Shown in pieces: positions 17,777 to 48,679 of a DNA stretch of 55,279 nt (position 1 is the first letter of the stretch; each line of letters opens with the position of its first letter). The notes beneath the pieces were generated by a model. It saw only the letters and a list, made by a program, of their open reading frames with translations, was not told the DNA's origin and did no database searches. The translations under genes were made by a program, and so were the position numbers. The stretch lies in IMG/VR virus record IMGVR_UViG_3300019768_000001, positions 1 to 55,279 of that record. One strand, written 5' to 3'. The DNA is from a virus (taxonomy: Duplodnaviria > Caudoviricetes).

Positions 17777-17827
17777 AGATAACACTGCAATCACAGGGCC
17801 GTTCCGCCCTGTATTTCTTTGTTATGT
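17777..17827 (+). mobile_element. attC-like recombination site H (solo)
   Basis: AGATAAC-actgc-AAT(C)ACAGGGC-cgttcc-GCCCTGTATT-tcttt-GTTATGT: R boxes, 5-nt unpaired spacers, bulged C in L''; 44/51 identical to site G. Confidence 0.75.
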
Positions 17828-17828
17828 G

Positions 17829-18074
17829 TCAATACTTACAGGTTGAAATAGTGCCGTCTGCTTCAATTTTTGTTGTTATCCCACCTCGATACCTCGCCAG
17901 AAACATTATGTATTCAACTCCATCAATACATACCACCTCGTATTTACCGTCACCGCCTTGTATCGCGCGCCCAGTTTTTCCTATGTCGCTTCTTTCGCAG
18001 CCCGTCACACATAACAAAGCAATTAAAACGGACAAAGCAAACGCTCTTCGTTTCTTGTTTTTCATAATCTTCAA
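17829..18074 (-). CDS. Small putative lipoprotein
   Basis: Basic N-terminus, hydrophobic core, VTG-C lipobox-like motif; CIDGVEY. Confidence 0.55.
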   Translation of the reverse strand: MKIMKNKKRRAFALSVLIALLCVTGCERSDIGKTGRAIQGGDGKYEVVCIDGVEYIMFLARYRGGITTKIEADGTISTCKY

Positions 18075-18133
18075 TTCCTGCTCAGTTAATTAATTGGTGC
18101 TTTTCCTTTTATCGCAAGGTTACCACCATACCA

Positions 18134-18322
18134 TCACGCCGGTTTATTGGTATTCGACGTTAGTTGTGCTTTGTACAGCACGGCCATCTCGCACAGCAGG
18201 TTGAATCGCTCAGGATCAGACTTAAACATATGCTCAAGCTTTCTCTTGCTGGTCTTTGTTATCTCGACCAGCTCGGCAAGGCCCTTAAGCCCTGCCTGCT
18301 TTGCTATTACTGCCGGGGTCAT
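18134..18322 (-). CDS. Small HTH-like protein (paralog of 36394..36555)
   Basis: MTPAVIAKQAGLKGLAELVEIT...W/F-x-x-x-P-E-x-F pattern. Confidence 0.55.
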   Translation of the reverse strand: MTPAVIAKQAGLKGLAELVEITKTSKRKLEHMFKSDPERFNLLCEMAVLYKAQLTSNTNKPA

Positions 18323-18324
18323 GC

Positions 18325-18609
18325 TCAACTCCAATGCGTGCTTACACCAAATTGCTCTAGCGCATCGATAAACAATCGCCCGTTACCGCTATCTATACGA
18401 TCCTTCCATTCCTCAAAATGCTCGCTTGAATCCAATAAGATTGGCTTTATCCCGCGAACCTTTGCGCCGTTTGATTCAACCTGGATTGTTACCATGTCAT
18501 GGTTCATATATGCAGCGCAATTTACATTATGACCAATTCTATTGCCGCAAAAGCTTGCCGTAGTGCTAGCGTTACCGATATTTTCAATAAATACTTTACT
18601 CATGATCAA
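18325..18609 (-). CDS. Hypothetical protein
   Basis: ORF in minus-strand accessory operon. Confidence 0.5.
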   Translation of the reverse strand: MIMSKVFIENIGNASTTASFCGNRIGHNVNCAAYMNHDMVTIQVESNGAKVRGIKPILLDSSEHFEEWKDRIDSGNGRLFIDALEQFGVSTHWS

Positions 18610-18613
18610 ACCC

Positions 18614-19018
18614 TTAAAAAGAAATAATAAATTGCTTGTTGTATGCGCACTCTACTTTTCTAGATGACTCGATTATCTTCTTGCTATTTATTTTCTTACC
18701 ACCATCTACCATTGACATAATCTTTTCTAATCGAGACTTCTCAAAAGACAAAACCCTTGCAACCTTTGGCTTGCTCTGGTCTTTTGATTCGTATCGAGCA
18801 ATAACATCTTTGCAGTAGTTGACACCGCCGATAATAATGTCACGCGCATACTCCTTCTGAGCGGGTGTTCCAGTAAAGCGATCTGTAGCAATCATACGTC
18901 CACCTTTTTTAATTGCCCATGCCATGCGCAATGCTTCAGCGAAGAACTCAGAAGCTTTGCCGCCAAACTTAACGACTGCTTCTTTTGCGATTTTCCAAGC
19001 TTCAGTAAATACGTTCAT
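18614..19018 (-). CDS. Hypothetical protein with conserved phage N-terminal domain
   Basis: F..AW.IAK...FA.AL.MAW motif. Confidence 0.6.
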   Translation of the reverse strand: MNVFTEAWKIAKEAVVKFGGKASEFFAEALRMAWAIKKGGRMIATDRFTGTPAQKEYARDIIIGGVNYCKDVIARYESKDQSKPKVARVLSFEKSRLEKIMSMVDGGKKINSKKIIESSRKVECAYNKQFIISF

Positions 19019-19257
19019 GGCTGAGTTCTCTTTGCTGTTCGTTGTTGGTATGGATACATAATATACCCTATGCGTGCTCTAATCAATAAAAATATACTAC
19101 ATTTGTGCTTTTATTTACCTAGACGTTAGTAGCAGACACAAAAAAGCCCGCGCTAACGGGCTTGGTGGTGTCGATTACGGTTATATCTTGCTGGCCATGT
19201 ACACTTGATGGGCGATCATTGCCAGCTGAGAGCCGATGATAAATAGTTCAAGCATAA

Positions 19258-20134
19258 TCAACCCAACCCTTGAACATAGCGCGCATGGTATGCAGCTGCA
19301 ACACCAATGGAGAAGCAGAACGCAGCCACCGGAACAATGAACACTAAGTCGCACACCTCGAAGTTTTTACGCATAGACTCACCCTGATACAGCCAATATA
19401 TGAAGCTATTCCAAATACCGCCCGACATAAGGAAGGCGATAACAACCAATGCAAAATCAATAGTAGGCATAATCAACCCTCCAGGCCTTTATCTTCGCCG
19501 TCGGTAATAATCTTTATTGTATTTCTAAGGTTCTTGTTTTCACTATTAAGTATTGCAATCATTTGGTCGCGCTCAAACCGAATCTTTTCGGATTCCTCGT
19601 ATAAAGCCTCAAAAGAAAACGCATCAGCAGCCCTTGCCTTAGCTATAGCCTTGCGCTTTGCGTGACGGACGGACGGAGCGTTATTGATAAGCCAATCTCT
19701 ATCCCTCGTTAAGCTCGACATCGCTGACACCAGAATATTCTGAGCGCTATTAGGCATAAAGGTAAGCGTAATCAGCCCAACCCGAAGAGTCTTAAGCTCG
19801 TATTGCTTTGTATCCCCGAAAATAATATCCGCCTTCCATGAGAAGTTAGTAACACCGAAATCTATAATAATCATGCTGCACCGCCTTCGATACCTAGACG
19901 CTCTTTCTGCTTTTCATTTAGATCTTGCAGGATCTCATCAGCCTTATAAGTCCACTTATCTCCATGCTTCCCATACAAATCCATAGCCCAGTGTATAAAA
20001 ACCGCCTGCTCGTATTCTGCTTTTTTAGCCTTATCTTCATACAGACCAGAAGATATGAGTAATTTAGCCATACGTGCGCATGCAAAGTTAGGGCGGCCAA
20101 GGATGAATATTTCTTGCTCGTTGAGATGAATCAT
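19258..20134 (-). CDS. Three coupled hypothetical genes (19871..20134, 19473..19874, 19258..19476)
   Basis: ATGA-type overlaps; first has ILGRPNF..A...KAEYEQA motif, last is a two-TM protein. Confidence 0.55.
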
Positions 20135-20248
20135 AAATACCTCGTCATCGGTATTGTCGCCTGTGAAGTGATGCGGCGAACCTGTCAGACGTTACAGGTG
20201 TTCGGGTTGCATGCCCTAGCCGCAAATACAGTGTATCAGATTAAAAAA

Positions 20249-20625
20249 CTATCCAGCAATATAAAGACCGGTAAACAACCCGGTAGCAAAGAAAGCCAAG
20301 AGCAATAAGAAGTTATTTACATTGAACGCTTTATTTACATTTACATTCTTTTTGCTTTTAGCATCTAAAAAAACTTCTTCATCTTTTAATAGCCAGCAAT
20401 GCTGATGCCATTTACCTGTATAGCTTAAGACTTTTTCCCCGCACTCAAGGCAAGGGGCAGATTCATGCATATCACAATAATACGCTCTATAACCGCAGTG
20501 CGAGCATACATTAACACGGCCCCATTTTTTATACGGACTGACTAGCCTTACGTACAATGAAGGCGGCATTGATTTTTCTTTCTTTGCTTTATTATCACAA
20601 TTAAAAAACGGGATGGAAGGCATAT
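20249..20625 (-). CDS. Zn-ribbon protein with C-terminal TM segment
   Basis: CSHCG...CLECG; GAGG RBS before MPSIPF. Confidence 0.5.
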
Positions 20626-20732
20626 ACAAACCTCGTAGCAGGTAATCGTAGAAGTAGGAAGCGGCAACACGGTCTACGTTCCATGCTTTCTCCCCGTCGG
20701 GATAGCCGCAAATCAATTATACCACTATCAGT

Positions 20733-20942
20733 CTAAACCGCCATTGCTGCAGCGTATCGCTTACCGTATTCGCCGCCTGCGTACTGTTCGCAGTACTCAA
20801 CAGGCTTGCGGCTAGGGACTTCAAACTCGTCAACCAAAACGTTTTCTTTATTTCTCGGGCTAACGTAATTAGACCAGATGCGAATCATTGGGTTTTTGTG
20901 GCTAGTGTTACGGTTCGGATTGGTTACGGTTACAGTTTTCAT
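20733..20942 (-). CDS. Hypothetical protein
   Basis: ORF preceded by palindromic operator-like site. Confidence 0.5.
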   Translation of the reverse strand: MKTVTVTNPNRNTSHKNPMIRIWSNYVSPRNKENVLVDEFEVPSRKPVEYCEQYAGGEYGKRYAAAMAV

Positions 20943-20968
20943 GGTGTCTGCCTTGTTTGTTTGTTTAT

Positions 20969-20988
20969 TTAAGATGAGTTCATCTTAA
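20969..20988. promoter_or_regulatory. Palindromic operator-like site
   Basis: TTAAGATGA-gt-TCATCTTAA between a TATAAT-like -10 and the start of 20733..20942. Confidence 0.4.
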
Positions 20989-21028
20989 TGTATTAAGCGG
21001 AACAAGTACAGCTTAATATAATTATACC

Positions 21029-22081
21029 TTAGTCTAAACCGGCACGCTCGAATGCTAACGGCTCAAGGGCCCGAAGCTCATCAAGGGTTAATGTTGCGCC
21101 TCTTGCGTCTGTGAATTTGCCTATGCTTAGACTGCCTTGACTGAACAGCTTGTACCGCTCATCACCATCTGGAAATTTAGAAAAATATTCCTTCTGGAAT
21201 GATGCCGGTTGCTTTTTAAGGAATGAATTAAACGTTGTTCGGCTTGATGTAGTGCCCGGGCCATCTGCGCCAACTTCTGGGCGCTCACCTTCAAAGCCGG
21301 GGATTTGTAGATCTTCGCGCAACACTGGAGTTCTCAGGCTTCGACAATTCCAATGAAGAGGCGGAATAGGGCCTGAGCCAACCGGGTATACTTTTCCGTC
21401 AAAACCACTACAAATTAAAGTTGTTCTGGAATCTAGCGTCGCAAGAAACCTTTCGCCCTGGAGGAATTCAGCGTTAGTACGGTAAAACTCCGTCTTAGCC
21501 TCGTTTGCAGCCGATATAGCCGATGTTCTGATTAGAGCGTCTGCCTGATTGCCTAAGCCCGGGGCTAAATCAAGTAAATCCTTTGATATCTGGCTATTTG
21601 TTTTCTGTCCAACGATACCGTCACGAATAACTTGCATCATTTGAGCAGACTTTTTAGAGTCGAACTGATCTAAGGCTTGCTTGATCGATATAGATTGGCC
21701 TGAATTAACGTCATCTATCGTAGGATTAAAAGTTACAGCCTGAGCCAACTGAACCGCAGCAGGAGCGGCAAAGTCAACGGTAGCCACACCGATCAACAAC
21801 CTCTCCTGAAACCCTGCCTCATAAGCAGCAAGCTCTAACGACTCTTGAAGCACCTCGTCTGACCATTCTGACACTGAAGCCAATAGAAAGGCCTCAATCT
21901 CCTGAATCACCGCGCGCTGCCGAAGCTGAGCATCTGGAGTAGTGGCAATCTGACCGGCTACACTGCGCAATATTTCCTGAAGCGCTGGCACCAGATCCTT
22001 GACCATACCCCCGCCACGACGCAATAGGAATATTTGGTGCCGAACTTGTGACTCGATTAAGAACTGGTTTGCGCTCATCAT
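21029..22081 (-). CDS. Head morphogenesis protein (Mu gpF / SPP1 gp7 family)
   Basis: ATLDSRTT.IC...DG...PPLHWNCRS motif. Confidence 0.85.
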   Translation of the reverse strand: MMSANQFLIESQVRHQIFLLRRGGGMVKDLVPALQEILRSVAGQIATTPDAQLRQRAVIQEIEAFLLASVSEWSDEVLQESLELAAYEAGFQERLLIGVATVDFAAPAAVQLAQAVTFNPTIDDVNSGQSISIKQALDQFDSKKSAQMMQVIRDGIVGQKTNSQISKDLLDLAPGLGNQADALIRTSAISAANEAKTEFYRTNAEFLQGERFLATLDSRTTLICSGFDGKVYPVGSGPIPPLHWNCRSLRTPVLREDLQIPGFEGERPEVGADGPGTTSSRTTFNSFLKKQPASFQKEYFSKFPDGDERYKLFSQGSLSIGKFTDARGATLTLDELRALEPLAFERAGLD

Positions 22082-24357: not shown

Positions 24358-24367
24358 AACCAGGCGA

Positions 24368-26771: not shown

Positions 26772-27374
26772 TCACGCCTCTTTCCTGTTTTCCCTAACTT
26801 CGCGCATCTGGATCACCTGGCTTTCTATCCCTTTTGCTGCCTCTTCGTGTGCCTGATCGCCCTTTCCCATGGCTTCTACCACCTTTCGTGTTATCGCTAG
26901 ATCATACAAGGCCAAGTCTTTATCTACCGTTTCTTTTTCCGCTAACCCCTTGTAGTAGGCTGCTTTTTCCTCACTCTCTCTAAGCCTTGCTTCGCCTTCC
27001 TTGATTCTTACCTGGCTCTCTTCGTGCTCTCGTTTCTTTTTGGATCGAAAGGATTGGATGGTGTAATAATTAACCACTAAAACGGTGATCATTACCAGAG
27101 CACCGCCGTATAGGCTTATTTGGTCAATTATTGAATCTAGGTTTAGCGCAGTAGCCGCAGAGGTAACAGATGTCCCAGCCGTCCCAGCCGTCCCTGTCAG
27201 TTTATCTTGTATAAGATGCTTTACAGTGTCAGACATAATTGGGATTGCCTCGGAAGTTAGCCAGATAACAATATAAAAAATAGCGGCAGATCGAATTCTA
27301 ATCGCAACTGGGCGCAGCTTTATCCAAATCCATCTGGTTATTGACATAGCCCACACCCCGCGCGTTACCTGCAT
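26772..27374 (-). CDS. Membrane protein, possible holin/antiholin
   Basis: TM segment(s) plus charged C-terminal tail; preceded by terminator and TGCTACAAT promoter. Confidence 0.4.
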   Translation of the reverse strand: MQVTRGVWAMSITRWIWIKLRPVAIRIRSAAIFYIVIWLTSEAIPIMSDTVKHLIQDKLTGTAGTAGTSVTSAATALNLDSIIDQISLYGGALVMITVLVVNYYTIQSFRSKKKREHEESQVRIKEGEARLRESEEKAAYYKGLAEKETVDKDLALYDLAITRKVVEAMGKGDQAHEEAAKGIESQVIQMREVRENRKEA

Positions 27375-27507: not shown

Positions 27508-29100
27508 TTATAGGACGGCAACTTTTCCAAGTAATTTTCCAGCCAGAATGTCAGCATCAAAGAACTCATCGCCCTCCATAGCTTCGCTGATTAACTTCGA
27601 TAGCTCACTAGACTTTGCGGCATTAAAAAGAACGTCTTCAGCAATAGCATCAACGTGAACTTGCTCAATATCAAAGCCAGCAGGATAAAGGCAGCCAGTA
27701 AAACCCTTTTTATCACGACTGTAAATCAAGCATCCAAGGCCTTCTAGATCATTCCTAAAAGTAACTACATTATCTCCCCCGCCTTTTGATACGCCCAAAA
27801 CAGTTACAACCTTGCCATTGAAGCTGTTAAACCGACTGTAATCTTCATGATATAAAACCACTAATTCAGCGCCAACAGGTGGCATATCACCGTTACGGAA
27901 CCAGTCAGATTCTACGACCTCCACATTAATCGTATTCTGATCAATACTCAGATCACCGATAGAGCCTTCAGCAACAACAGTAAGCCCCGCTATATCCGCC
28001 TCTGCCTGCTTTACACCATCATCAACCCACTCACCGGCATCTAATATGCTAGCTAGCTTTTCGGCTTGAGCGGCGCGAGTATTTTCTCTAGCATCAGCAG
28101 CATAAGCAGCAGCAGCAGCAGCATCAGCAGCAGCATAAGCAGCAGCAGCATAAGCAGCAGCAGCAGATCTTGCCTTAATTAACTCGTCTCTTGTCGCTTT
28201 ACCGTCAATATAATCAATCGTGACTTTCAAGCATTCTGAAACACGATCATCGTTAGACAGATGAGCCACTTGACACGCACACCACCACGCAAAACGCTTC
28301 CAGATATCGGAATACTCAGGCAGCGCACGAAACGTATAAATACAGCCTTTAACTCCAGGTTCAGATTTTATGATATCCGACATATTAAACTGATCATCGT
28401 CAGCTGTTGATTTTCCGCAGTATGCCAGCATGTTTTTCAGTAACTGCTTATTTCCGGTTTCTTTGATCTGATTTAGCGTAATTTTAATGGGCTTCATTTT
28501 ATCAATGCTCTCACCGCTGTCCGTATCGCCAAAGTTTTCCTCATAAGCTTCTTTCATAGACTGCCCCGGCTTGATTGGCGCTTTCTTCTCACCACCAAAA
28601 GCAATACGTTCGCGCTCCAAGGCTTCTTCTCTAGACATGATAATGCAAAACCCATCCATTTTTTCACCTTGACCGTAAAATACGTTCTCTTGCCTATATG
28701 CATCATAAGAAAGCCACTCGCCATTAGCCGTGTATCTAATCTCATGGGTATTATTATTCCAACTCTCAACCTTCGGCCTTCCGGTCATCTGCATCAGGCA
28801 TCTCTCGAACTCTGGTCGCTGACAAATAAACTGGCAATTGCCAGATATAACGCCCTCCATATTATGCCATGTGACCTCTTTTCCCATGTAAAGAGCGGCG
28901 TAATTAGACTCTTTATGCCATTTACCACAAGAAATACGCACAATCTGCTTTAACTCTTCGCTGAACCGTTCCATGCCATCACCCCTATACTGATTTAATT
29001 TATCTTGTTTCTTTCTTTGTTGAATACGGGAGAACAATCTCTTGGCCTCCCAGTCCCAGTTGTTAATATTTGATTTCAACGTTACGAACTTCTTTCGCAT
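27508..29100 (-). CDS. Mosaic multi-domain protein with Imm5-like/Ala-repeat module (likely start ~28974)
   Basis: FAWWCACQV...GKAT.DEL..ARSAAAAYAAAA; C-terminal W...G..PPVG module. Confidence 0.55.
   Translation of the reverse strand: MRKKFVTLKSNINNWDWEAKRLFSRIQQRKKQDKLNQYRGDGMERFSEELKQIVRISCGKWHKESNYAALYMGKEVTWHNMEGVISGNCQFICQRPEFERCLMQMTGRPKVESWNNNTHEIRYTANGEWLSYDAYRQENVFYGQGEKMDGFCIIMSREEALERERIAFGGEKKAPIKPGQSMKEAYEENFGDTDSGESIDKMKPIKITLNQIKETGNKQLLKNMLAYCGKSTADDDQFNMSDIIKSEPGVKGCIYTFRALPEYSDIWKRFAWWCACQVAHLSNDDRVSECLKVTIDYIDGKATRDELIKARSAAAAYAAAAYAAADAAAAAAYAADARENTRAAQAEKLASILDAGEWVDDGVKQAEADIAGLTVVAEGSIGDLSIDQNTINVEVVESDWFRNGDMPPVGAELVVLYHEDYSRFNSFNGKVVTVLGVSKGGGDNVVTFRNDLEGLGCLIYSRDKKGFTGCLYPAGFDIEQVHVDAIAEDVLFNAAKSSELSKLISEAMEGDEFFDADILAGKLLGKVAVL
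28086..28170 (-). repeat. GCT-based poly-Ala coding repeat
   Basis: (GCA)n on plus strand with periodic ATA/TCA interruptions. Confidence 0.85.
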
Positions 29101-32886: not shown

Positions 32887-33315
32887 CTATCTCCAGTCTG
32901 TATCGTCCTTGTTTGATTTGCCTATATTGCAGTCATCACAAAGAATTTGCAGGTTATCAATATCAAGCTCTAACTCAGGTCTAAGCGATCTAGGCTTTAT
33001 GTGATCGACATGAATAACTACGCCATCTTTAGCGCCCCTCCCGCACAACATGCATTTTCCGCCGTGATTCGACAGAACTTTATATCGAAGCTCTCGCCAG
33101 TCTCTACTTTTGAAAAAATCAGAACCAGACGATCCGTAGGTAAATGGAACTGGATTCTTCTCACCGGTAAGACGGTTAAGATTCCTGGTAAGTTGGCGCA
33201 GAGAATCCTTTACACCCCTTGGATTGTCGTAAAATCCAGATTCAAGCAGCTTTGTTTTCTGCTCTATCTTGAACCTTAACGTCTTCGCTCGTTCTTCTTT
33301 GCTTTTTCTTGCCAT
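32887..33315 (-). CDS. HNH endonuclease
   Basis: WRELRY.VL...CMLCG...HVDHIKPRS..PELEL...NLQILC..CN.GKSN. Confidence 0.9.
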   Translation of the reverse strand: MARKSKEERAKTLRFKIEQKTKLLESGFYDNPRGVKDSLRQLTRNLNRLTGEKNPVPFTYGSSGSDFFKSRDWRELRYKVLSNHGGKCMLCGRGAKDGVVIHVDHIKPRSLRPELELDIDNLQILCDDCNIGKSNKDDTDWR

Positions 33316-33716
33316 TTCAGACCACCTTTATTTTCTTGTTTATATATATCCAGAGTAGGTTTCTAGGTTTAGATAGGCATAACAACTCTAAGGAAACCAA
33401 TATTAATCAGTTAACCTTAGCTGTTATACCTGATATATCCGTCGTAGTGTGTCTTAGGATATCAAGGCAGTCTATTCGATCATGGTCTAATAAACTTAGG
33501 TCAGTATGGTCAATGAACCACCAGAGTCATGCGCTAGACCTACACCTGTTAAGGCAACTCTTAGGCGCTCCCGCTTGCTCTCTGTGCCATGTAGCGGGAT
33601 TGTCACCAGTACGCACCGGTTTTAACCGACATACTGGTCTAGCTGATTACGTGGGATTGCTCGGAGTAATCCCTTTAACCGTTTCTGGCTTCGGGACGTG
33701 GGGCGGGATTTCAGGC

Positions 33717-33815: not shown

Positions 33816-34007
33816 ATCAGCACTAACAATTATACTTTATGGTTAGATTTAATCAACAAATCTTTGAAGCACACCCTGCGGGGTTAATTGCCACCGGCGG
33901 TGCTTGGCCCCGATAGCAAAAACAGGATGCGCCCCAAAGCCCCTAAGAATCTTCATTATGAACCGCAATAGTTACTTTGCAATTAGCCTTTGGTATAATT
34001 GATAAAT

Positions 34008-34125: not shown

Positions 34126-34815
34126 ATGAACGATTTAGTTTTACCCGCCAATACACAGACAATGACCAGCCTAGAGCTGCGCGATATTATCAATAGCTCT
34201 CGCCAGAGCAGCAATGAACCCAAGGTTCGCAATGATCAGCTTATTGATAGAATTAAAGATGAGCTTGAAGGTGAATTAGGGGTATGCAAAAAAATTGCAC
34301 ACCCCCAAAGCGGCGTTGAAATGAAATACTACGACCTGACGATTGATCAATGCACCCTGGTTGGTATGCGTGAATCTAAGTCTGTCCGCCGTAACGTGCT
34401 GGCAAAGCTTAAAGAGCTGGAATCAGGCCAGAAAAAGATACCTCAGTCTTTCGCAGAGGCTCTACAACTTGCAGCAGACCAAGCCCTTCAGATTGAGCAG
34501 CAGGAGCAACAACTCGCCATTGCAGCCCCGAAGGTGGACTTTTACGATACTGTTACAGGGTCAGATGATACCGTTGACATGCTTGGAGCGGTGAAAGTGC
34601 TTAACCTTGGCTACGGACGCACTACCCTATTCAAAAAACTGCGCGAGAAAAAGGTTCTGCGTAAGAGCAATCAGCCGTACCAGCGGTATATTGATTCTGG
34701 ATATTTCCGAGTTGTCGAGTCAACTTGGACTGATGATAAAGGCGATTCTCACGTACACTTTAAAACAGTGGTATACCAGAAGGGCTTAGACTACATCAAA
34801 AAGATTCTGGCCTAG
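34126..34815 (+). CDS. Antirepressor, KilA-C domain (start MNDLVLP)
   Basis: MTSLEL N-terminus, PQSFAEALQLAAD linker, APKVDFYD...PYQRYIDSGYF..KG. Confidence 0.85.
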   Translation: MNDLVLPANTQTMTSLELRDIINSSRQSSNEPKVRNDQLIDRIKDELEGELGVCKKIAHPQSGVEMKYYDLTIDQCTLVGMRESKSVRRNVLAKLKELESGQKKIPQSFAEALQLAADQALQIEQQEQQLAIAAPKVDFYDTVTGSDDTVDMLGAVKVLNLGYGRTTLFKKLREKKVLRKSNQPYQRYIDSGYFRVVESTWTDDKGDSHVHFKTVVYQKGLDYIKKILA

Positions 34816-34861
34816 TAGAAACAAAGAAGCCCTACAAGTGAGGGCTTTTTATACTTTATGG

Positions 34862-35104
34862 CTAGACTTTTTCAACAAGTTCGAATGTTTTTATTGTTTC
34901 TGCAATATGGAAGTGGCCATCATACTTGTAACCTGGCGTTTTATGGTCAGCCAAAACCTTATCAGGGAATCTACGCATAAACTCTTTCGTTGAATAATCA
35001 TGGCCTGACACCACTTCACCTGTAAGCCTTGTTTCTTCAGTGTACTTAACCTCAAACCCAAGCTTCTCACATAGCGCAATTAACAACTTCATTTCATCGC
35101 TCAC
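34862..35104 (-). CDS. Hypothetical protein
   Basis: ORF with RBS. Confidence 0.5.
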   Translation of the reverse strand: MSDEMKLLIALCEKLGFEVKYTEETRLTGEVVSGHDYSTKEFMRRFPDKVLADHKTPGYKYDGHFHIAETIKTFELVEKV

Positions 35105-35124
35105 AATACACCCCTTATTTATGG

Positions 35125-35349
35125 CTAGCCTTTGGCAAGCTCTTCAGCTAACCATTTGGAATAATTTGCCGCCTTCTCTGCGTCACGCACAGGGTTGTCG
35201 GGCGTTTTATGCATCATTCGACACTGATATTTAAGCGCATTGCCCAGCAAATAACCCTGATACTGCTCTGGTGTCAGCTTGGCCTTAATCACATCAAGCG
35301 TTTCGATACCACCTGCATCGTAGTAGCTGCTTTTTACGTCTTTGCTCAT
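35125..35349 (-). CDS. DUF3310 protein
   Basis: Y..GGIETLDVI...GYL.GNALKY..R..HK...D.EKA..Y. Confidence 0.8.
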   Translation of the reverse strand: MSKDVKSSYYDAGGIETLDVIKAKLTPEQYQGYLLGNALKYQCRMMHKTPDNPVRDAEKAANYSKWLAEELAKG

Positions 35350-35876: not shown

Positions 35877-35878
35877 TG

Positions 35879-35929
35879 CAATAACACCTCAATAACATAG
35901 ACCTTCGGCTATGTATTTCTCTGTTATAT
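35879..35929 (+). mobile_element. attC-like site D
   Basis: CAATAAC-acctc-AAT(A)ACATAG(A)CC-ttc-GGCTATGTATT-tctct-GTTATAT; two bulged bases on the L'' arm. Confidence 0.8.
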
Positions 35930-35931
35930 TG

Positions 35932-36057
35932 TTAAAACTCTAACATGGTATATTTTCTGCACTCCCAGAATCCTGGCGGTGTAGTCCAGTCGGCCCAGCG
36001 TCTGCGGACAAAAACTTTAAATTTAACGCCTTTATGTGTTCTGTATACAAGCTCCAT
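35932..36057 (-). CDS. Cassette ORF, 41 aa (MELVYRTHKGVKFKVFVRRRWADW...)
   Basis: Fills the segment between sites C and D; not in track. Confidence 0.45.
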   Translation of the reverse strand: MELVYRTHKGVKFKVFVRRRWADWTTPPGFWECRKYTMLEF

Positions 36058-36068
36058 GACAACCCTAA

Positions 36069-36130
36069 ATATAACAATGCAATCAAACAGATAACTCGTA
36101 ACCTCGTTACTCGTTATCGCCGGGTTATGT
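36069..36130 (+). mobile_element. attC-like site C
   Basis: ATATAAC-aatgc-AATCAAAC...GATAAC/GTTATC and GTAAC/GTTAC inner stems...GTTATGT; L pairing imperfect. Confidence 0.7.
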
Positions 36131-36313
36131 TACCTTTTTAATATTTAGTGTAATTTCCACCAGTTCAGTGTTTTCTCTATCATGCTTGTCTGCTACTTTT
36201 TTTAGGTATCGCCTAGCTGGTGTAGCGCTATCAAATATAAGCATGTTTTGGTTTTCTCCATCAACTCTAATCTGTTTCGTTTTACTATCAATCAGTACAA
36301 ATGAACTTTTCAT
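36125..36313 (-). CDS. Cassette ORF, 62 aa (MKSSFVLIDSK...)
   Basis: GAGG RBS; stop TAA lies within the R box of site C. Confidence 0.55.
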   Translation of the reverse strand: MKSSFVLIDSKTKQIRVDGENQNMLIFDSATPARRYLKKVADKHDRENTELVEITLNIKKVT

Positions 36314-36340
36314 TTTTTTAAGCCTCTTGTGTTTTCGGTA

Positions 36341-36399
36341 ACATAACAAGTAAAATCAAAGCTGACGCGCTACGCTTGAAGTTTATTTGGTGGTTATGC
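36341..36399 (+). mobile_element. attC-like site B
   Basis: ACATAAC-aagtaa-AAT(C)AAAG...GCG-tac/cta-CGC...GTTTATT-tggtg-GTTATGC; resembles site F. Confidence 0.75.
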
Positions 36400-36555
36400 G
36401 CCAAGCTCGGCAATACACCCAAGCAGCACAATTCTAAACAGCTCTGGTTTATCTCTATGCCAGTTGCCTAGTGTTTGTAGGCTTTGTCCTGTTAGCTCAG
36501 ATACTTGCGACAGGCTTTTAAGGCCAGCCGCTTTTGCTTGCTGTGATGGGGTCAT
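36394..36555 (-). CDS. Cassette ORF, 53-aa HTH-like protein (MTPSQQAKAAGLKSLSQVSELTG...)
   Basis: Not in track; ATGA-coupled to upstream ORF; stop in R box of site B; paralog of 18134..18322. Confidence 0.6.
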   Translation of the reverse strand: MTPSQQAKAAGLKSLSQVSELTGQSLQTLGNWHRDKPELFRIVLLGCIAELGA

Positions 36556-36764
36556 AGCAACCCCCGCTTCTCAGCATCTTTTAAAAATTCGTCTTGCTGC
36601 TCGACTGTCATGTGGCCAGCTATAGCAAGCTGCACTAATGCCATTAGGCGGTCGTCTTCCAGCTCACCTGCAAATTCTTTAAACATACCGTTTAGTTTGT
36701 TTGATCTTACTAGGCCGTCATTAATCATTTTATTTTGCTCCGTTGCGTTAGTTAGTAAGTACAT
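36552..36764 (-). CDS. Cassette ORF (likely start 36728, MINDGLVRSN...)
   Basis: GGAG RBS before ATG at 36728. Confidence 0.5.
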   Translation of the reverse strand: MYLLTNATEQNKMINDGLVRSNKLNGMFKEFAGELEDDRLMALVQLAIAGHMTVEQQDEFLKDAEKRGLL

Positions 36765-36829
36765 TGTTACAAACTATTTGCTCCTTGCCTAGTCTTTTTG
36801 CAAATTACTTTAAATTAATTGTAGAAAGC

Positions 36830-36882
36830 GCATAACAAAGCAAGGCAATCGGATGCAAGCACCGTTGCTCGCAAAGATTATT
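36830..36882 (+). mobile_element. attC-like site A (degenerate R')
   Basis: GCATAAC-aaagc-AAGGCAATCGG(A)TGC-aa-GCACCGTTGCTC-gcaaa-GATTATT; shares AACGGTGC..TCCGATT core with site E. Confidence 0.65.
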
Positions 36883-37312
36883 TGCTCTATTTGATGCGCC
36901 GACTATTTACCAATCAGCACATCGAATAAAACGCCCTGCCGCAGGAATCCGGGCCAGACCATGAAAAGAGGAAAAATATCAAAACCCCTTGCCTGCTTGC
37001 ACATTGATTCGGCTCTGTGTGCTCCACTGGAGATTCCGCGCATCATGTAAATCCAATGGACGGCAGCTTCAAAGCTACACAAAGCTAATTATCGCGGACA
37101 TAATGCCAGATCCGCGCCCTGATATAGGGTATTAATGTGACTGTTAGCGCCACCCTCCCCGCTGTGACAATATTGTCGGAAAGGTGACGCTAAGGAATGC
37201 GCTCTGTCGTTCCCATAATTTTATACACAACCACAATGCAATTTATTGAACAAACACACTTTGGTTAATGTTTAAGTTATGGCAAAGCGCATTATTTAGC
37301 GCAACTAACAGT

Positions 37313-37732: not shown

Positions 37733-37809
37733 TGGGGCCACAAACGGGACTCGAACCTGCGACCTCTCGCTTAGGAGTCGAGCGTTCTATCCAACTGAAC
37801 TAATAGCGC
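37733..37809 (-). tRNA. tRNA-Arg(CCT)-like, acceptor stem poorly paired (possible pseudo-tRNA)
   Basis: GTTC-AGTTGGATA-GAAC D arm, CTCCTAA anticodon loop, GGTTCGAGTCC T loop, encoded CCA; about 3 acceptor mismatches. Confidence 0.6.
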
Positions 37810-37814: not shown

Positions 37815-37888
37815 AGCTGAAGGCCGGATTCGAACCGACGCAATACCAATGCGAACAAAGGCGGGTTTTCCAGTTTCCCCACTTCAGC
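37815..37888 (-). ncRNA. tRNA-like element with aberrant anticodon arm
   Basis: Perfect GCTGAAG/CTTCAGC acceptor, GGG/CCC D stem, GTCGG-TTCGAAT-CCGGC T arm; anticodon stem does not pair; no CCA. Confidence 0.55.
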
Positions 37889-39388: not shown

Positions 39389-39389
39389 A

Positions 39390-43712: not shown

Positions 43713-43763
43713 TTGTTTATCGTCCCGTTGTTTGCGTCCTATTAAATTAACGTAAAATTAAAC

Positions 43764-43800: not shown

Positions 43801-43819
43801 CAAATCACGAGGCAGAAAC

Positions 43820-43975
43820 ATGGCTATAAAGAAAAACAACCCGTCCTCTTATATGAATGACGAGCAGCTGAGGCTGGCAACAGAAGCCTCAGTTAAAGAA
43901 GGTAGAAGTCTGTCATCTTTTATTCGTATGGCAGTAGAAGAAAAAACAAACAAGGTGTTAGGGGTGAAAAAATGA
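43820..43975 (+). CDS. Ribbon-helix-helix-like regulator, 51 aa (not in track)
   Basis: GAGG RBS; A..EGRSLSSFIRMAV.E pattern; ATGA overlap with next gene. Confidence 0.65.
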   Translation: MAIKKNNPSSYMNDEQLRLATEASVKEGRSLSSFIRMAVEEKTNKVLGVKK

Positions 43976-44322: not shown

Positions 44323-44334
44323 AAAGGATTAAAA

Positions 44335-45165
44335 ATGAGTCAGTTATTTATTGCAGAGATGAGCAACGAGGAATACCACGGCGGCCATGGTGTTTCAAAA
44401 TCAACATTGGACTTAGTGCATAGAGATCTGTTTGCACCAGAATGGTCTAAGAAGTGCCCGCAAGACAAGGACAAGCTTAAGACTTTGGATTTTGGCGATG
44501 CAATGCACGCAATATGCTTGGAGCCTGACCGTCTAGAATCAGAGTTCGTTGTAATGCCAGCATTCAACCTTAGAGCTAATGACGGCAAGGCATCAAAAAA
44601 GGCGTTTGAAGCCGAGCATGACGGCCATAAGATTCTAACCGCAGACGAACACTTTAAGCTGAAACTGATGTTTGAATCGGTAATGGCGCACCCTCAAGCA
44701 AGACGACTAATTGAGGCCGAAGGTATTGCAGAGGGCTCTTACTTTTGGGATGACGAGCAAACAGGGATCACCTGCAAGTGCCGACCAGATAAGCACATTG
44801 TAAAAGAAGGGCTCCTGGTTGACGTGAAGACTACGCCAGATCTCAAAAAGTTCTGTTACTCGGTAGATGATTACCGCTACCACGTACAAGATCCATGGTA
44901 CTGCGACGGAATAAGCCGGTTTCACGGCGAAACCAGAATGGAATTCCTTGCTATCCAGAAAACAATAGAGCTTGGTAAGTACCCGGTCATGGTTGTAAAG
45001 CTTCCTCAAGAGGCTATTGAATATGGTAGGGCCTTGTACCGAGAAGACTTAAATCGTTACGCTGATTTTATTAATAGCGACAAGCAAGCCGGAACCAAAG
45101 AGCTGGCAATGCATTACAATTTCCTTGATCGGGCATACGAGAAGATAACAGAGGTTGAGCTATGA
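44335..45165 (+). CDS. RecE/Exonuclease VIII-like PD-(D/E)XK nuclease (DUF3799-like)
   Basis: SNEEYH...SKS.L; G.A.H...LEP; CKCRPD...DVKTT; YHVQ..WY. Confidence 0.85.
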   Translation: MSQLFIAEMSNEEYHGGHGVSKSTLDLVHRDLFAPEWSKKCPQDKDKLKTLDFGDAMHAICLEPDRLESEFVVMPAFNLRANDGKASKKAFEAEHDGHKILTADEHFKLKLMFESVMAHPQARRLIEAEGIAEGSYFWDDEQTGITCKCRPDKHIVKEGLLVDVKTTPDLKKFCYSVDDYRYHVQDPWYCDGISRFHGETRMEFLAIQKTIELGKYPVMVVKLPQEAIEYGRALYREDLNRYADFINSDKQAGTKELAMHYNFLDRAYEKITEVEL

Positions 45166-45689
45166 GTGACGTTACAAATCTTGCTGACACGGTAGCACCA
45201 AAAAGCGATCAACTTAATGCTGACGACCTGCTAACAGGGCCAATTACTGTAACCGTTATCGATGTTAAGCGCGGCCCTAAAGATCAGCCTGTCTGGATCG
45301 TGATAGATGGCGGTCGACAGCCATACAAGCCGTGCAAGTCAATGCGTCGCGTAATGATCCAAGCTTGGGGGGCTAATGGTAAGGACTGGGTAGGTCGATC
45401 TATGACCTTGTTCTGTGATCCTAGTGTTAAGTTTGGCGGCGTGGCTCTTGGAGGTATTCGCATCAGTCACATGAGCCATATTACCGGAACGCTTGATATG
45501 ATGCTGACAGTAACAAGAGGCCGTAAAAATCAGTTCAAAGTTCACCCGTTGAAAACTGTTGATTATTCAAAACTGATAGCAGGTTATTCAGCGATGAACC
45601 AAGAAGATAGAAATAAAGCGTGGGCAACATACACGCCAGATCAGCAGATGGCTATCAGTAACGCAATGAACAGTGGAGTAAGCAATTAA
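45162..45689 (+). CDS. Conserved phage protein partnering RecE-like nuclease (putative ssDNA-binding/annealing)
   Basis: PKSDQLNADDL..GP...PYKPCKSMRRV...GGIRISHMSHI family; function inferred from synteny. Confidence 0.6.
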   Translation: MSDVTNLADTVAPKSDQLNADDLLTGPITVTVIDVKRGPKDQPVWIVIDGGRQPYKPCKSMRRVMIQAWGANGKDWVGRSMTLFCDPSVKFGGVALGGIRISHMSHITGTLDMMLTVTRGRKNQFKVHPLKTVDYSKLIAGYSAMNQEDRNKAWATYTPDQQMAISNAMNSGVSN

Positions 45690-45727
45690 TGTCTCGCGGA
45701 ATAAATAAAGTAATTATTGCCGTATAA
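45689..45727 (+). pseudogene. Orphaned ssb 5' remnant (MSRGINKVIIAV*)
   Basis: Matches canonical SSB N-terminus MASRGVNKVIL; GGAG RBS; followed by HNH gene. Confidence 0.7.
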
Positions 45728-45769
45728 TCGTTTTTTCGTTACTATATTTAACATATAGAAGGGGCTTAT

Positions 45770-46273
45770 ATGGATGAATATGATTTATATAACAACGGAA
45801 AAAGCATACCAGAGGTAAGCGATGAGACAGGGATACCAAGATCAACACTGAGATTCAGGTTTAAAAAAGCAGGAATATTAAGGTCTAGGGCTGATGGCAT
45901 TAAAAACGCATCAAAAAACGGTCGATTAGGTTCAGGTCTTAGAGGTAAGAAAAGGGTTTTCACAGAAGAGTGGAAGAATAATATTTCAAAAGGAAAAACC
46001 GGAAAGGGGCTTGGTGTATCTGTAAAGCCTAGTGGATATATAGAGATAACGATGGGAGAAAACAAGGGTAGGTTGGAGCATGTTGTAATAATGGAGTTGA
46101 TAATAGGAAGAAGGCTTGCGTCAAACGAGTGCGTTCATCATAAAGATGAAAACAGGGCCAACAACGACCCTGAAAACCTTCAGTTAATGACAAGAAGCGA
46201 GCATGCATCTTTGCATGCTAAGCAAAATATAAGCAAAAGAAATAGAGATAAGAGAGGTCGTCTTTGTGGCTAA
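45770..46273 (+). CDS. HNH homing endonuclease
   Basis: N-terminal HTH/NUMOD-like; EH.VIME..IGR.L...E.VHHKDE.R.NN..ENL.LMT.SEH..LH. Confidence 0.85.
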   Translation: MDEYDLYNNGKSIPEVSDETGIPRSTLRFRFKKAGILRSRADGIKNASKNGRLGSGLRGKKRVFTEEWKNNISKGKTGKGLGVSVKPSGYIEITMGENKGRLEHVVIMELIIGRRLASNECVHHKDENRANNDPENLQLMTRSEHASLHAKQNISKRNRDKRGRLCG

Positions 46274-46850
46274 CGATTTAAATCAGTGTCAATTTATTGG
46301 ACGTTTAGGGAAAGACCCTGAAACAAAATTTCTTCCAAACGGTGGGCAGGTTACTAACATATCGATAGCCTGCGGAAGCTCTTGGACTGACAAATCGTCT
46401 GGCCAGAAGCAAGAGAAAACCGATTGGATACCAGTGGTTTTTTTTGGAAAACTTGCAGAAATAGCAGGCCAGTACTTAACGAAGGGGTCAAAAATATTTG
46501 TATCCGGTAATTTTAAAACACGCAAATGGCAGGATCAATCTGGCCAGGATCGCTACACAACAGAGATCGTTGTCGATGGCTTTGGCGGTGTAATGCAGAT
46601 GTTGGATAGCAAGAGTGACGGGCAAGGCGGCGGGCAAAATAATGCTCCACCACAACAGGCACCAGCACCAGTACCGGCACCAACGCCACAAAAAGACTAT
46701 GCAGCTGAATACATGGCTATGACCCGCGAACAGCAAACACAGATGTGGCCGAGCTATACCGATGCACAGCGCCAATTGATCACCGACGCTGTAATGTCTC
46801 AGAAACAACCTGAAAGCAATCTGCCTCAGCCAGACGACATACCTTTTTAG
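46266..46850 (+). CDS. ssb: Single-stranded DNA-binding protein
   Basis: IGRLGKDPE...TRKWQDQSGQDRYTTEIV; acidic DDIPF tail. Confidence 0.95.
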   Translation: MANDLNQCQFIGRLGKDPETKFLPNGGQVTNISIACGSSWTDKSSGQKQEKTDWIPVVFFGKLAEIAGQYLTKGSKIFVSGNFKTRKWQDQSGQDRYTTEIVVDGFGGVMQMLDSKSDGQGGGQNNAPPQQAPAPVPAPTPQKDYAAEYMAMTREQQTQMWPSYTDAQRQLITDAVMSQKQPESNLPQPDDIPF

Positions 46851-46968
46851 CAACAGCAGCCCGGCTTCGGTCGGGCGATAGGGTGATTTATGAACAAAAC
46901 ACCAAAGCAGCGCCGTCACTCGCTATTAATGATGGATAACCACCGGAAGAGACTGGAGGCTGAGCGGG

Positions 46969-47595
46969 ATGGGAAACAGCAAAAAACGCTGTAAGCAGTG
47001 CAAGAAATACGTTCCGGCTGAATCTGGAATTAAGGTGCCAGCCGGTTTCTTTTGCTCCCATGATCATGCTATTGAGTTTGCCAAAGCAAAGCAGGCTCAA
47101 TCGTCGCTTAAACAGCGCAAGGAGCGCGAACGCATAAAGTCGATGACTGTTAAGGATTTGGACAGAGAAAGCCTTCCTTGGCAGCACAAGCAGACCCAGA
47201 AGGCTTTTAACAGAATGAGGGTCTTGCAAGAGCTGTATTATTATCAATCGAACGGTCTAGAGCCCGTTTGTATTAGCTGCCAGAAACCGCTAGGCGGTGA
47301 TCAGTGGTGCTGCGGTCATTATAAAACCGTAGGCGCTCACCCAGAGCTGAGGTATGACCCTCTAAACACTCACTTGCAGCATAACCGTAATTGCAATATG
47401 GGATTATCGGGTGACATAAAAGGCTATACGTTCGGGCTCGTTGATCGCCACGGCAAGGACAAAGCTGCAGAGATATACGATTATCTGGCGGTAGATAATG
47501 GGCCAAAAAAATACACTTGTGATGAGCTGGAAAAAAACCGAGCAGAGTACCGAAAAGAAATTAGGCAACTAGAGAAAATTGTAACTATCGTCTAA
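46969..47595 (+). CDS. ninG: NinG/Rap-family recombination nuclease
   Basis: CKQCK...FCS..HA; CISCQ...CCGHYKTVGAHPELR.D..N.H.Q...CN..LSG. Confidence 0.85.
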   Translation: MGNSKKRCKQCKKYVPAESGIKVPAGFFCSHDHAIEFAKAKQAQSSLKQRKERERIKSMTVKDLDRESLPWQHKQTQKAFNRMRVLQELYYYQSNGLEPVCISCQKPLGGDQWCCGHYKTVGAHPELRYDPLNTHLQHNRNCNMGLSGDIKGYTFGLVDRHGKDKAAEIYDYLAVDNGPKKYTCDELEKNRAEYRKEIRQLEKIVTIV

Positions 47596-47657
47596 TACCG
47601 GCCAATCCTGATAACCGGTAAATTACAGATTCAAACAATAGCAAGCAAGGGGATAAC

Positions 47658-47870
47658 ATGAGCAAGATAGCAAGCGTTTACGATAAGAATTCAAAGTCAG
47701 TGATTTTAGATATGCGCCATCCGAACAAAGATGTGCCTAGACCTGAAATTGTGATCGACACAGAAACAGAGAAGTACGCCGTTCCGGGCGGGAAGACATT
47801 TGAGCTGCTTCGAGATGCGCGTGTTGTAGCAACTGAGATGTTTAGTAAGGCGGGTTTTGTTTGCCAGTAA
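47658..47870 (+). CDS. Hypothetical protein
   Basis: RBS; stop TAA lies in the R' box of site E. Confidence 0.5.
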   Translation: MSKIASVYDKNSKSVILDMRHPNKDVPRPEIVIDTETEKYAVPGGKTFELLRDARVVATEMFSKAGFVCQ

Positions 47871-47924
47871 CCATATAAATAAACGGTGCAGCGCAGCAAG
47901 TCCGATTTAATTTGCTTGTTATGC
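47865..47924 (-). mobile_element. attC-like site E
   Basis: Minus: GCATAAC-aagca-AAT(T)AAA(T)CGG...CCGTTTATT-tatatg-GTTACTG. Confidence 0.7.
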
Positions 47925-47946
47925 TGCGAATAGATAGGGGGGGAAT

Positions 47947-48120
47947 ATGGGCGTTAGAATGAAAAAGACAGATCGAGAATGGCACGAGTACCCATTAGGG
48001 ACTAAAGCTCACGCCGTTATGGGTGGTTATTGGGAAAGAGTTAAGGGTGGCTGGAAATGGTGTACAGGTTCTACCTTTCCTACTCCCGGTGCTGACTGGC
48101 GAGTAATAGAATTACCATAG
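47947..48120 (+). CDS. Cassette ORF, 57-aa Trp/Gly-rich protein (MGVRMKKTDREWHEYPLGTKA...)
   Basis: Not in track; G-rich RBS; fills the segment between sites E and F. Confidence 0.55.
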   Translation: MGVRMKKTDREWHEYPLGTKAHAVMGGYWERVKGGWKWCTGSTFPTPGADWRVIELP

Positions 48121-48122
48121 CA

Positions 48123-48182
48123 ACATAACCCCTTAAACAAACGCAGAGCGTAGCGATGTAGCTTTGCTTTAAATTGTTATAT
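48123..48182 (-). mobile_element. attC-like site F
   Basis: Minus: ATATAAC-aattt-AAA(G)CAAA...TTTGTTT-aaggg-GTTATGT; resembles site B. Confidence 0.75.
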
Positions 48183-48194
48183 TACGGAGACATT

Positions 48195-48629
48195 ATGGAT
48201 TACTTAAAACTATTGCAAGAAAGCTACAGAGAAACAGCAGAGAATAGGGATGACCCAACTTTAGAAAAACTAGAGTTCTTGGCTGAGGGTATTTTCGGAT
48301 TCACGACATACGAGAATGTGGTTTCTTCTACGATGGCGCAAAAGGCACTAGAAGTATGCAAGGCGATAAGTGACAAAAAGACATTTGATTACATTGCCAG
48401 TGAAGAGGGAAATCTTTGGTATCTGGTAATGGTTAATATGCCGTTTTTTGAAAACAGGCTTAATTGGGGTACTTCTATTCGTGGTGCTTGGTGGGATCTG
48501 TGGGGCAATAAAGAATTCACCATTGAGAGTTGCGAACTGTTTGGCGGTGAACAGATACTAGAGCTTAAATTGAATGACAGTGAATGGGTTAAGTTTATAG
48601 AAGCTATGATTAAGTTCGCGGAAGAGTAA
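48195..48629 (+). CDS. Cassette ORF, 144-aa hypothetical protein (MDYLKLLQESY...)
   Basis: GGAG RBS just after site F; stop abuts site G; WGTSIRGAW motif. Confidence 0.65.
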   Translation: MDYLKLLQESYRETAENRDDPTLEKLEFLAEGIFGFTTYENVVSSTMAQKALEVCKAISDKKTFDYIASEEGNLWYLVMVNMPFFENRLNWGTSIRGAWWDLWGNKEFTIESCELFGGEQILELKLNDSEWVKFIEAMIKFAEE

Positions 48630-48679
48630 TATAACAAAGAAATACAGGGCGGAACGTCCCTGTTATTGATGTGTTATGC
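48629..48679 (-). mobile_element. attC-like site G
   Basis: Minus: GCATAAC-acatc-AAT(A)ACAGGG(A)CG-ttc-CGCCCTGTATT-tcttt-GTTATAT. Confidence 0.8.

Follow-up and report, generated by a model that had tools for sequence, protein, structure and literature searches.

The window, the whole 55,279-nt stretch of DNA analysed here, belongs to an uncultured phage and carries about ten short attC-like hairpin sites between small accessory genes. A sequence-only reading of the same DNA had listed eight such sites (A to H), and a check of the window located every one of them where that reading had placed it; two candidates outside that list were also found, one of them long and the other weak (site I). 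The sites were scored with two covariance models that serve as proxies, built from genuine attCs and distinct from IntegronFinder's own model: R1, derived from 15 attCs of the Vibrio anguillarum integron only, and R2, derived from 34 genuine attCs of the V. anguillarum and Shewanella integrons and phage PH101. E-values from both models are rough because the calibration was shortened. The sites and the cassette ORFs between them are as follows, with fold z-scores relative to shuffles.
17777..17827, strand ambiguous: site H, 47-nt core, G/H/D family; fold z −3.79; R2 22.0 bits (E 0.0091) on the minus strand and 14.7 bits on the plus strand.
18010..18125, plus strand: candidate long attC of 116 nt, not in the earlier list; top window match of both R1 (19.8 bits) and R2 (31.2 bits, E 4.9e-5).
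33377..33429, plus strand: site I, weak candidate, not in the earlier list; strict pattern at 33379-33427; fold z −3.2/−4.5; R2 just 11.3 bits (E 3.8, marginal).
35879..35929, strand ambiguous: site D, G/H/D family, 39 of 47 bases identical to G with compensatory stem changes; unmatched by R1 or R2 (for R2, no match at E≤5).
35940..36728, minus strand: cassette ORFs between D, C, B and A, of 39, 62, 53 and 58 aa.
36069..36130, plus strand (attC top strand; genes on minus): site C; R2 23.4 bits (E 0.0041), R1 15.1 bits.
36341..36399, plus strand: site B; R2 20.2 bits (E 0.025).
36830..36883, plus strand: site A, with a degenerate R' (GATTAT); R2 26.9 bits (E 5.7e-4).
47865..47924, minus strand (attC top strand; genes on plus): site E; R1 18.5 bits, R2 27.9 bits (E 3.3e-4).
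47947..48629, plus strand: cassette ORFs between E, F and G, of 57 aa (47947-48120) and 144 aa (48195-48629).
48123..48182, minus strand: site F; R1 16.8 bits, R2 25.5 bits (E 0.0012).
48629..48679, strand ambiguous: site G, G/H/D family; fold z −3.32; R2 15.3 bits (minus) and 14.2 bits (plus), weak at E 0.4-0.8.

Apart from the 116-nt candidate, the sites are 47-62 nt long. Ends of the form xTAAC...GTTAx are present in seven of the eight listed sites, the exception being site A, whose GATTAT end is degenerate as had been claimed. A strict pattern, ATAAC-N33-60-GTTAT, matches the window seven times, compared with a mean of 1.71 and a maximum of 6 in 100 dinucleotide shuffles of the window, so that seven matches were reached in none of the 100. 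Six of these matches are listed sites (H, D, C, B, F and G) and the seventh is site I; E and A fall outside the pattern because E has GTAAC and A has GATTAT. The placement at ORF boundaries was also borne out, as the sites lie 0-12 nt past stop codons and the stop is frequently within TAAC. The GTTAT/ATAAC of site C contains the stop of ORF 36125-36313, the end of site B contains that of ORF 36394-36555, and the GTAAC of site E contains that of ORF 47658-47870. The candidate at 18010..18125 covers the first 56 nt of a lipoprotein ORF (17829-18065, minus strand) and its end is 8 nt away from the stop of ORF 18134-18322, while site I is positioned upstream of an HNH endonuclease gene (32887-33315, minus strand).

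The covariance models, which contain genuine attCs only, recognize most of these sites. Run with filters off, R1 gave nine window matches at E<1; six listed sites (E, F, H on both strands, C, A and B) account for seven of these. R2 gave 12 matches at E<1, nine of which are on seven of the eight listed sites, with E, A, F, C, H and B scoring 20-28 bits, all six at E≤0.025. No R2 match at E≤1 was found in 93,363 bases from nine other phage loci, and in 175 kb R1 matched nothing at E≤1 beyond the true array. Under R1, genuine Shewanella attCs scored 14-34 bits, with 16 of 17 matches at E≤0.13 inside the integron or a CALIN; these heterologous attCs and the window sites thus occupy the same score range. 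The sequence-only reading had described the sites as having attC architecture and had named a covariance-model search as a check. The description agrees with matches to seven of the eight listed sites at E<1 and none in control phage DNA, and the check, made here with the proxy models, supports it with the exception of site D. Two further R2 matches, at 27272-27325 and 50673-50800, were not counted as sites because they overlap coding sequence and lack clean TAAC/GTTA ends.

In attC sites, an unpaired central spacer is combined with extrahelical bases in the L stem of one arm, and that arm sets the strand choice. By minimum free energy, and as a correction to the earlier description, a clear advantage over shuffles is seen only in the folds of G, H, D and I (z −2.5 to −4.5) and is absent from those of C, B, E, F and A (z +0.2 to −1.35). 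Folds combined with manual parsing place the spacers and bulges at AAT(x)ACAGGG in G/H/D, AAAT(T)AAA(T)CGG in E and AAA(G)CAAA(G)C in F. The spacers measure 4-5 nt rather than the 5-6 nt stated earlier, and the single bulged base ascribed to each site does not hold for E and F, which carry two (in E, two bulged T on the R''-L'' arm). The layout of spacer and extrahelical bases is that of the RNAalifold structure of real Vibrio attCs, and is less clear in C, B and A. MAFFT alignments of all elements (A1, A3 and A4) and of the short genuine attCs (A6) were inconsistent with the structure and for this reason were dropped from modelling.

Sequence features common to the sites and real attCs include the CATAACAA.. 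and ..GTTATG ends, CGGAY after L'' and the loop motif GCTACGC, which site B shares with the PH101 attCs; site A has the CGGAT...CACCG motifs known in Vibrio attCs. The attC core is inverted R''/R' with invariant AAC...GTT and the consensus RYYYAAC / GTTRRRY, the latter being given as G|TTRRRY in Qi et al. 2023 (PMC9892861). The 7-mers of the window sites are one position off RYYYAAC, as they are in genuine Vibrio, Shewanella and PH101 sites. Within the G/H/D family, H and G are inverted copies identical at 43 of 47 bases, with the 60-nt arms around them 85% complementary, and D is less close to H (36/47) than to G. Among five sequences only (H, D, G and two metagenomic members), 4 of 15 stem pairs show compensatory changes, and 94.7% of cells are paired, compared with 32-58% when the partner is slid. 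The orientation of this family is ambiguous, with site H scoring higher in the gene sense. Of the eight window sites with covariance-model support, six have an attC top strand that runs clearly antisense to the genes on either side. Read in the gene sense, a cassette consists of an attC and then an ORF, the TAA stop of which is often within the TAA|C of the next site.

The same element families are found in a 55.9-kb relative (G001) and in several metagenomic contigs, and gene content between the sites varies among these relatives instead of staying constant, in keeping with the gain, loss or shuffling of genes proposed in the sequence-only reading. In G001 the block at 35877-36928 is replaced by ~290 bp with one ORF and no elements, a copy of D that is 100% identical over 49 nt is present at a different locus, and a variant of site I is found at the equivalent place. 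Site G belongs with the upstream variable block: homology to G001 restarts directly past it, at the junction GTTATG|CCAAAGTCTAA, the right part of which is the end of rusA in G001. At site H, homology ends at the other box, and it picks up again at 18124, by the candidate site at 18010..18125. The break points between the window and G001 are within a few nucleotides of elements and are not demonstrably at G|TT. A sharper case is provided by two metagenomic contigs (L023 and L024), which have conserved flanks with one versus two different units inside. The two part company right after the TAAC of the first element and reunite at the ATAAC of the last, swapping units of an element plus its downstream gene, and both junctions are compatible with TAA|C. 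Near-identical elements also occur with different genes on both sides, as observed for D and its G001 copy, for elements g1a and m23a, and for site F, the same element being present in a contig of run X2 with both flanks different. This is not predicted by one-ended IntI exchange alone.

Another 11 IMG/VR contigs carry these element families; in them, 21 of 22 R1 matches are antisense to genes, and one locus among them has eight sites in 4.5 kb scoring up to 34 bits. Contigs of three read runs, which are blind to rare excision, contain no joint inside the arrays for the window's phage. A megablast search of 12 kb against the phage collection gave no match, the protein downstream of H used as a query found no relative, and 9 of 11 NinG-region loci of other phages were without elements. 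Judged by portal, tail and exonuclease proteins, the closest cultured phages are only distantly related, and their hosts are mixed. A scan of genome_contigs with the pattern returned a single match, in a Clostridia MAG, which was treated as chance because ~0.25 chance matches are expected by our own estimate.

The earlier statement that no recombinase is visible agrees with domain searches, which detected no tyrosine recombinase (PF00589) in the 55-kb genome at E≤1, the positive control being detected in 14 of 14 genomes. The window likewise gave no serine recombinase (PF00239) and no Y1 transposase (PF01797), and G001 has no tyrosine recombinase either. With no tyrosine recombinase in the window, the arrangement of a complete integron, intI with attI and Pc beside the array, is not present. 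The sites are instead grouped as in a CALIN, with C, B and A on the plus strand within 0.8 kb, and E and F on the minus strand within 0.3 kb with G adjoining. The phage is a lambdoid-like siphovirus, and the clusters occupy two or three of its accessory loci. We think it reasonably likely that the sites are integron-type attCs of a miniature Vibrio/Shewanella type in integrase-less clusters, and infer that a host IntI is used in trans. Each site would then comprise four parts: ATAAC/GTTAT ends that pair as R boxes, an unpaired spacer of 4-5 nt, an L stem that has one or two extrahelical bases, and a top that varies. Single-stranded phage DNA would fold inside a host having an integron integrase and IntI would recombine the folded sites in trans, so that small accessory genes may be gained, lost or exchanged between co-infecting phages.

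T4-type phages provide one comparison. In their PeSLs, an early promoter is reportedly paired with a terminator, and recombination is homology-based. Like the window sites, PeSL cassettes are repeated intergenic stem-loops found on either side of small accessory ORFs in hyperplastic regions, at the borders of segments that are gained, lost or replaced (PMC2839356, PMC4122927); the window sites differ in matching the attC models and in having no promoter or terminator signature in the gene sense. The attC sites of the sedentary chromosomal integrons of Vibrio and Shewanella, read from MK672802 and MZ568829, share with the window R boxes of the form xxTAACAA.. / ..GTTAT(G), the GGAY motif, an unpaired spacer (3-5 nt) and an L stem whose R''-L'' arm bears two extrahelical bases. 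Vibrio sites, however, are ~125 nt long, and they are next to intI and share the strand of the cassette genes, whereas the window sites are mostly 47-62 nt, antisense to genes and without intI.

The closest likeness is to the marine Pseudoalteromonas phage PH101, which gave four matches on the plus strand with 8 of 8 annotated genes on the minus strand. Its attCs are also short (56-76 nt) with ATAAC/GTTAT ends, share the AACGGACT motif as well as the GCTACGC loop motif, and are in one orientation, antisense to the intervening small ORFs of a phage without IntI. PH101 differs in being a 132-kb cultured virulent phage with one cluster, in contrast to two or three clusters in an uncultured 55-kb phage, and its sites score 35-41 bits under R1 against 10-20 for those of the window, which also include the divergent G/H/D sub-family. 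Qi et al. 2023 (PMC9892861) assayed two PH101 sites with IntI1 and report that both integrated into attI1. The same paper describes integrase-less attC clusters in 17 phages, and because such clusters, including the short, gene-antisense sites of PH101, are already published, the kind is known and the novelty claimed for phage attC arrays was overstated.

The phage encodes exonuclease VIII, SSB, NinB and NinG/Rap, and the sites might instead be attC-derived but no longer used by IntI, with shuffling carried out by this general recombination machinery acting on short shared ends or extruded cruciforms, as for PeSLs. The junctions with G001 beside elements and not at G|TT, and the identical elements with different neighbours on both sides, would fit such a process, and PeSL-mediated shuffling is documented (PMC2839356, PMC4122927). 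However, the mere 5-7 nt common to different element types would not suffice for homologous exchange, conservation of the bulges, spacer and R boxes follows the requirements of IntI recognition exactly, and the gene sense carries no promoter or terminator signature; we regard this explanation as unlikely.

A position in short intergenic spacers within operons, together with co-varying stems, would also suit elements acting mainly on RNA or transcription, such as mRNA-stabilising or processing hairpins or antisense terminators, with a convergent likeness to attC. On the antisense strand, G, H and D present a GC stem followed by ATTTCTTTGTT, and a terminator scan flags G. Yet that scan finds none in the gene sense at the sites, where a U-tract is lacking, promoter counts in the window are no higher than in shuffles, and no Rfam family matches the arrays at E≤1. 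Sequence conservation extends to the unpaired spacers and ends, which match those of real attCs, and gene-content breaks as sharp as those of L023 and L024 are unexpected of plain hairpins, which makes such a role improbable. The recurrence of the same 47-60-nt element in many contexts, with both flanks different and conservation ending sharply, and the complete identity of D at different loci in two phages, could further point to miniature non-autonomous mobile elements with ATAACA/TGTTAT inverted ends inserted by an enzyme supplied in trans. Their internal architecture, though, is that of attC, neither a target duplication nor a filled-versus-empty site pair was seen, and the window has no detected transposase; we consider this highly improbable.

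Beyond the published clusters, the window adds to the integrase-less attC arrays the spread of the same short families over at least 13 uncultured phage contigs, a mostly antisense arrangement in common with the experimentally validated PH101 cluster, and natural variants that differ by whole units of attC plus gene. Literature searches found no paper on the antisense arrangement or on these element families, which is not proof of absence. If a host IntI truly acts here, phages would draw on the integron cassette pool and also supply it, with a bearing on the movement of accessory, defence and counter-defence genes between phages and bacteria. A broader proposal, which we advance only tentatively, is that marine phages keep their own pool of inverted cassettes, traded via a borrowed host integrase as a general engine of accessory-gene turnover. 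The attC would be upstream of, and antisense to, its ORF, so that the recombinogenic bottom strand would be the gene-sense strand, itself the lagging-strand template if replication proceeds outward from an O/P-type origin region. Turnover might extend even to int-xis modules, as in locus L040.

None of the six cassette ORFs, of 57 and 144 aa between E, F and G and of 39, 62, 53 and 58 aa between D, C, B and A, has a Pfam match. The 144-aa protein matches phrog_18399; of the 53 phage records with a homolog, 47 are Vibrio phages. In Vibrio myoviruses the homolog is an ordinary moron that has its own terminator and no elements, and the same applies to locus L043. The 53-aa ORF matches phrog_409, a transcriptional regulator.

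All eight attC-like sites proposed in the sequence-only reading are present in the window at their coordinates, and the motif ATAAC-N33-60-GTTAT occurs seven times against 1.71 expected, a count reached in 0 of 100 shuffles. Six of the seven matches are among the eight sites, and the seventh is a new site, I (33379-33427). A stop codon is positioned 0-12 nt before every site, and a TAA stop frequently lies within the TAAC of the site. Judged solely on folding energy, G, H, D and I are distinctive and C, B, E, F and A are not. Site G repeats H in inverted orientation, with 43 of 47 positions identical; D also belongs to their family, and a pattern search turned up two metagenomic members, one at L022 and one in contigs L023 and L024. 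Among these five sequences only, the ends, lower stem and spacers are invariant, and compensatory changes affect 4 of the 15 upper-stem pairs.

The attC models used were proxies built from sites of real integrons, not IntegronFinder's own model. The first, R1, was built from 15 attCs of phage record MK672802 alone, which holds part of the Vibrio anguillarum chromosomal integron together with its intI. The consensus fold of these attCs is composed of TAAC/GTTA, a 3-nt spacer, 5 bp, a bulge, 3 bp, a bulge and 3 bp; they start CATAACAAAG.. and finish ..GCGTTATG, ends identical to those of the window sites. R1 gave nine window matches at E<1, including E, F, H, C, A and B, with G at E of about 3, and 175 kb of other phage DNA yielded no match at E≤1 beyond the true array. 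In another genus (the Shewanella M16-3 record), 16 of 17 matches at E≤0.13 fell within the integron or its CALIN (an attC cluster without integrase), scoring 14-34 bits, and the four attCs of the cultured Pseudoalteromonas phage PH101 were found at 35-41 bits. Model R2 was rebuilt from 34 genuine sites of V. anguillarum, Shewanella and PH101, and across 93 kb of control loci it matched nothing at E≤1.

R2 scores of sites in the window.
18010-18125, candidate outside the original eight: 31.2 bits, E 4.9e-5
47865-47924, site E: 27.9 bits
36830-36882, site A: 26.9 bits
48123-48182, site F: 25.5 bits
36069-36130, site C: 23.4 bits
17777-17827, site H: 22.0 bits
36341-36399, site B: 20.2 bits
48629-48679, site G: 15.3 bits
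33379-33427, site I: 11.3 bits
35879-35929, site D: no match at E≤5

The proposed integron attC architecture is supported, with both models matching most of the eight sites and controls empty at E≤1. Model alignments also show sequence shared with genuine attCs beyond structure, CGGAY after the L arm and CACCG before its partner, and the loops of both F and B contain GCTACGC, a motif also present in PH101 attCs. By structure, model and sequence kinship we interpret the window sites as attC sites; they form integrase-less clusters like that of PH101. A 78-aa ORF (17829-18065, minus strand; phrog_7772) with a lipoprotein-like signal peptide has its first 56 nt inside the 116-nt candidate at 18010-18125, so that signal peptide and R''-L'' arm would be specified by the same DNA.

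With R2, the modelled top strand runs antisense to the neighbouring genes at E, F, C, B, A and 18010-18125, and marginally so at G; H scores higher in the gene sense. In true integrons (Vibrio, Shewanella) the matches lie on the cassette-gene strand, unlike most window sites. PH101 resembles the window, with four R1 matches on the plus strand and all eight annotated genes of that region on the minus strand, and 21 of 22 R1 matches at nine further phage loci are antisense to genes; the antisense layout is therefore a trait common to these phage clusters. A cassette in the gene sense reads "attC, then ORF".

At 55,279 bp and with direct terminal repeats of 123 bp, the window is a complete virus record in IMG/VR. 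Its PHROG matches mark it as a lambdoid-like siphovirus and include large and small terminase, portal, major head and tape-measure-like proteins; O-like and P-like replication proteins, exonuclease VIII, SSB, NinB and NinG/Rap; two Ant proteins and three HNH or GIY-type nucleases. The reported lack of a tyrosine recombinase was borne out, as six-frame profile searches found no tyrosine recombinase, serine recombinase or Y1 transposase at E≤1 (searches positive in 14, 13 and 10 of 14 control genomes, respectively), and Pfam found no recombinase among ten further unassigned ORFs.

The sole close relative, G001 (55,858 bp), is a mosaic of the window and has no tyrosine recombinase. After SSB the window carries NinG, three small genes and sites E, F and G, whereas G001 has other genes there, interspersed with elements of its own (a, b, c and a copy of D that is 100% identical); in G001 one ORF without elements stands in place of the window D-A block. 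Homology restarts directly after G, but the first common bases are the end of G001 rusA, so a clean G↓TT exchange does not describe this junction; at H, homology ends at the opposite-side box. The bases directly after G (48679-48690, CCAAAGTCTAA) match the last codons and stop of the RusA-like gene. In the window, NinG/Rap occupies the place that a Ref-like HNH protein and RusA have in G001 (Ref and RusA names from reading translations, not profile search), which looks like functional replacement of a junction resolvase. At 566-653 of the G001 reverse complement, a pair of elements meets head to head, GTTATAAC, one within the 3' end of a 198-aa ORF and the other the D copy.

Contigs L023 and L024 have identical flanks around one versus two unrelated units, diverging right after the TAAC in which the conserved left gene has its stop codon, and rejoining at the ATAAC of an identical last element. 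This fits a swap of "attC + downstream gene" units at TAA↓C, equivalent to G↓TTA on the top strand as modelled. This pair is compatible with the predicted breaks in gene content at G↓TT; the imprecise window/G001 junctions fall within a few nt of the elements, not demonstrably at G↓TT. The a-type element occurs in 12 IMG/VR contigs with neighbours varying on both sides almost everywhere, and at 9 of 13 loci the ORF upstream terminates on the TAA of TAAC. A contig from run X2 has the F element with both flanks different from the window. At locus L040, eight model matches fall within 4.5 kb, and a lambda-type int-xis pair is located among them; the 375-aa integrase and Xis-like ORF lie between attC-like sites (1654-5329), and an identical site and Xis-like paralog recur 2.85 kb further on.

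IntI1 integrated the tested PH101 attC sites into attI1 (Qi et al. 2023, PMC9892861), and by analogy a host IntI may act on the sites of the window phage. Caution on this attC/IntI reading comes from D, G and I, weak or missed by the models, from the imprecise junctions with G001, for which exchange by the phage's own recombination functions is a possible, less probable account, and from identical elements between unrelated genes on both sides. A self-mobile element would produce this last pattern, and a miniature mobile element is a possible reading at lower probability; the pattern also resembles the uniform attCs of chromosomal integrons. An RNA-level role for the sites is likewise possible but less probable than the attC/IntI reading.

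Integrase-less attC clusters in phages are a known kind. What may be new is that these element families recur across many uncultured phages, the presence of more than one attC cluster per phage genome, the consistent antisense layout and the natural unit-wise variants, no description of which was found in the literature covered (the supplements of Qi et al. excepted).

Elsewhere in the window, the exact terminal repeat spans 1-123 and 55157-55279, and G001 likewise has a 123-bp terminal repeat. Two adjacent minus-strand tRNA genes (37736-37809 and 37815-37888; Rfam, gathering threshold) lie near a gene-poor stretch with a perfect 19-nt inverted repeat (38231-38249/38374-38392, arms 124 nt apart). 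A repeat of ~30 nt (TTATACTTTATGG...) in three copies (33830-33859, 34849-34878 and 35118-35138) around the Ant gene at 34126-34815 may be an operator or promoter repeat. AGC/CAG-rich periodic repeats of 9 and 12 nt (28069-28178) lie within a 530-aa ORF (27508-29100).
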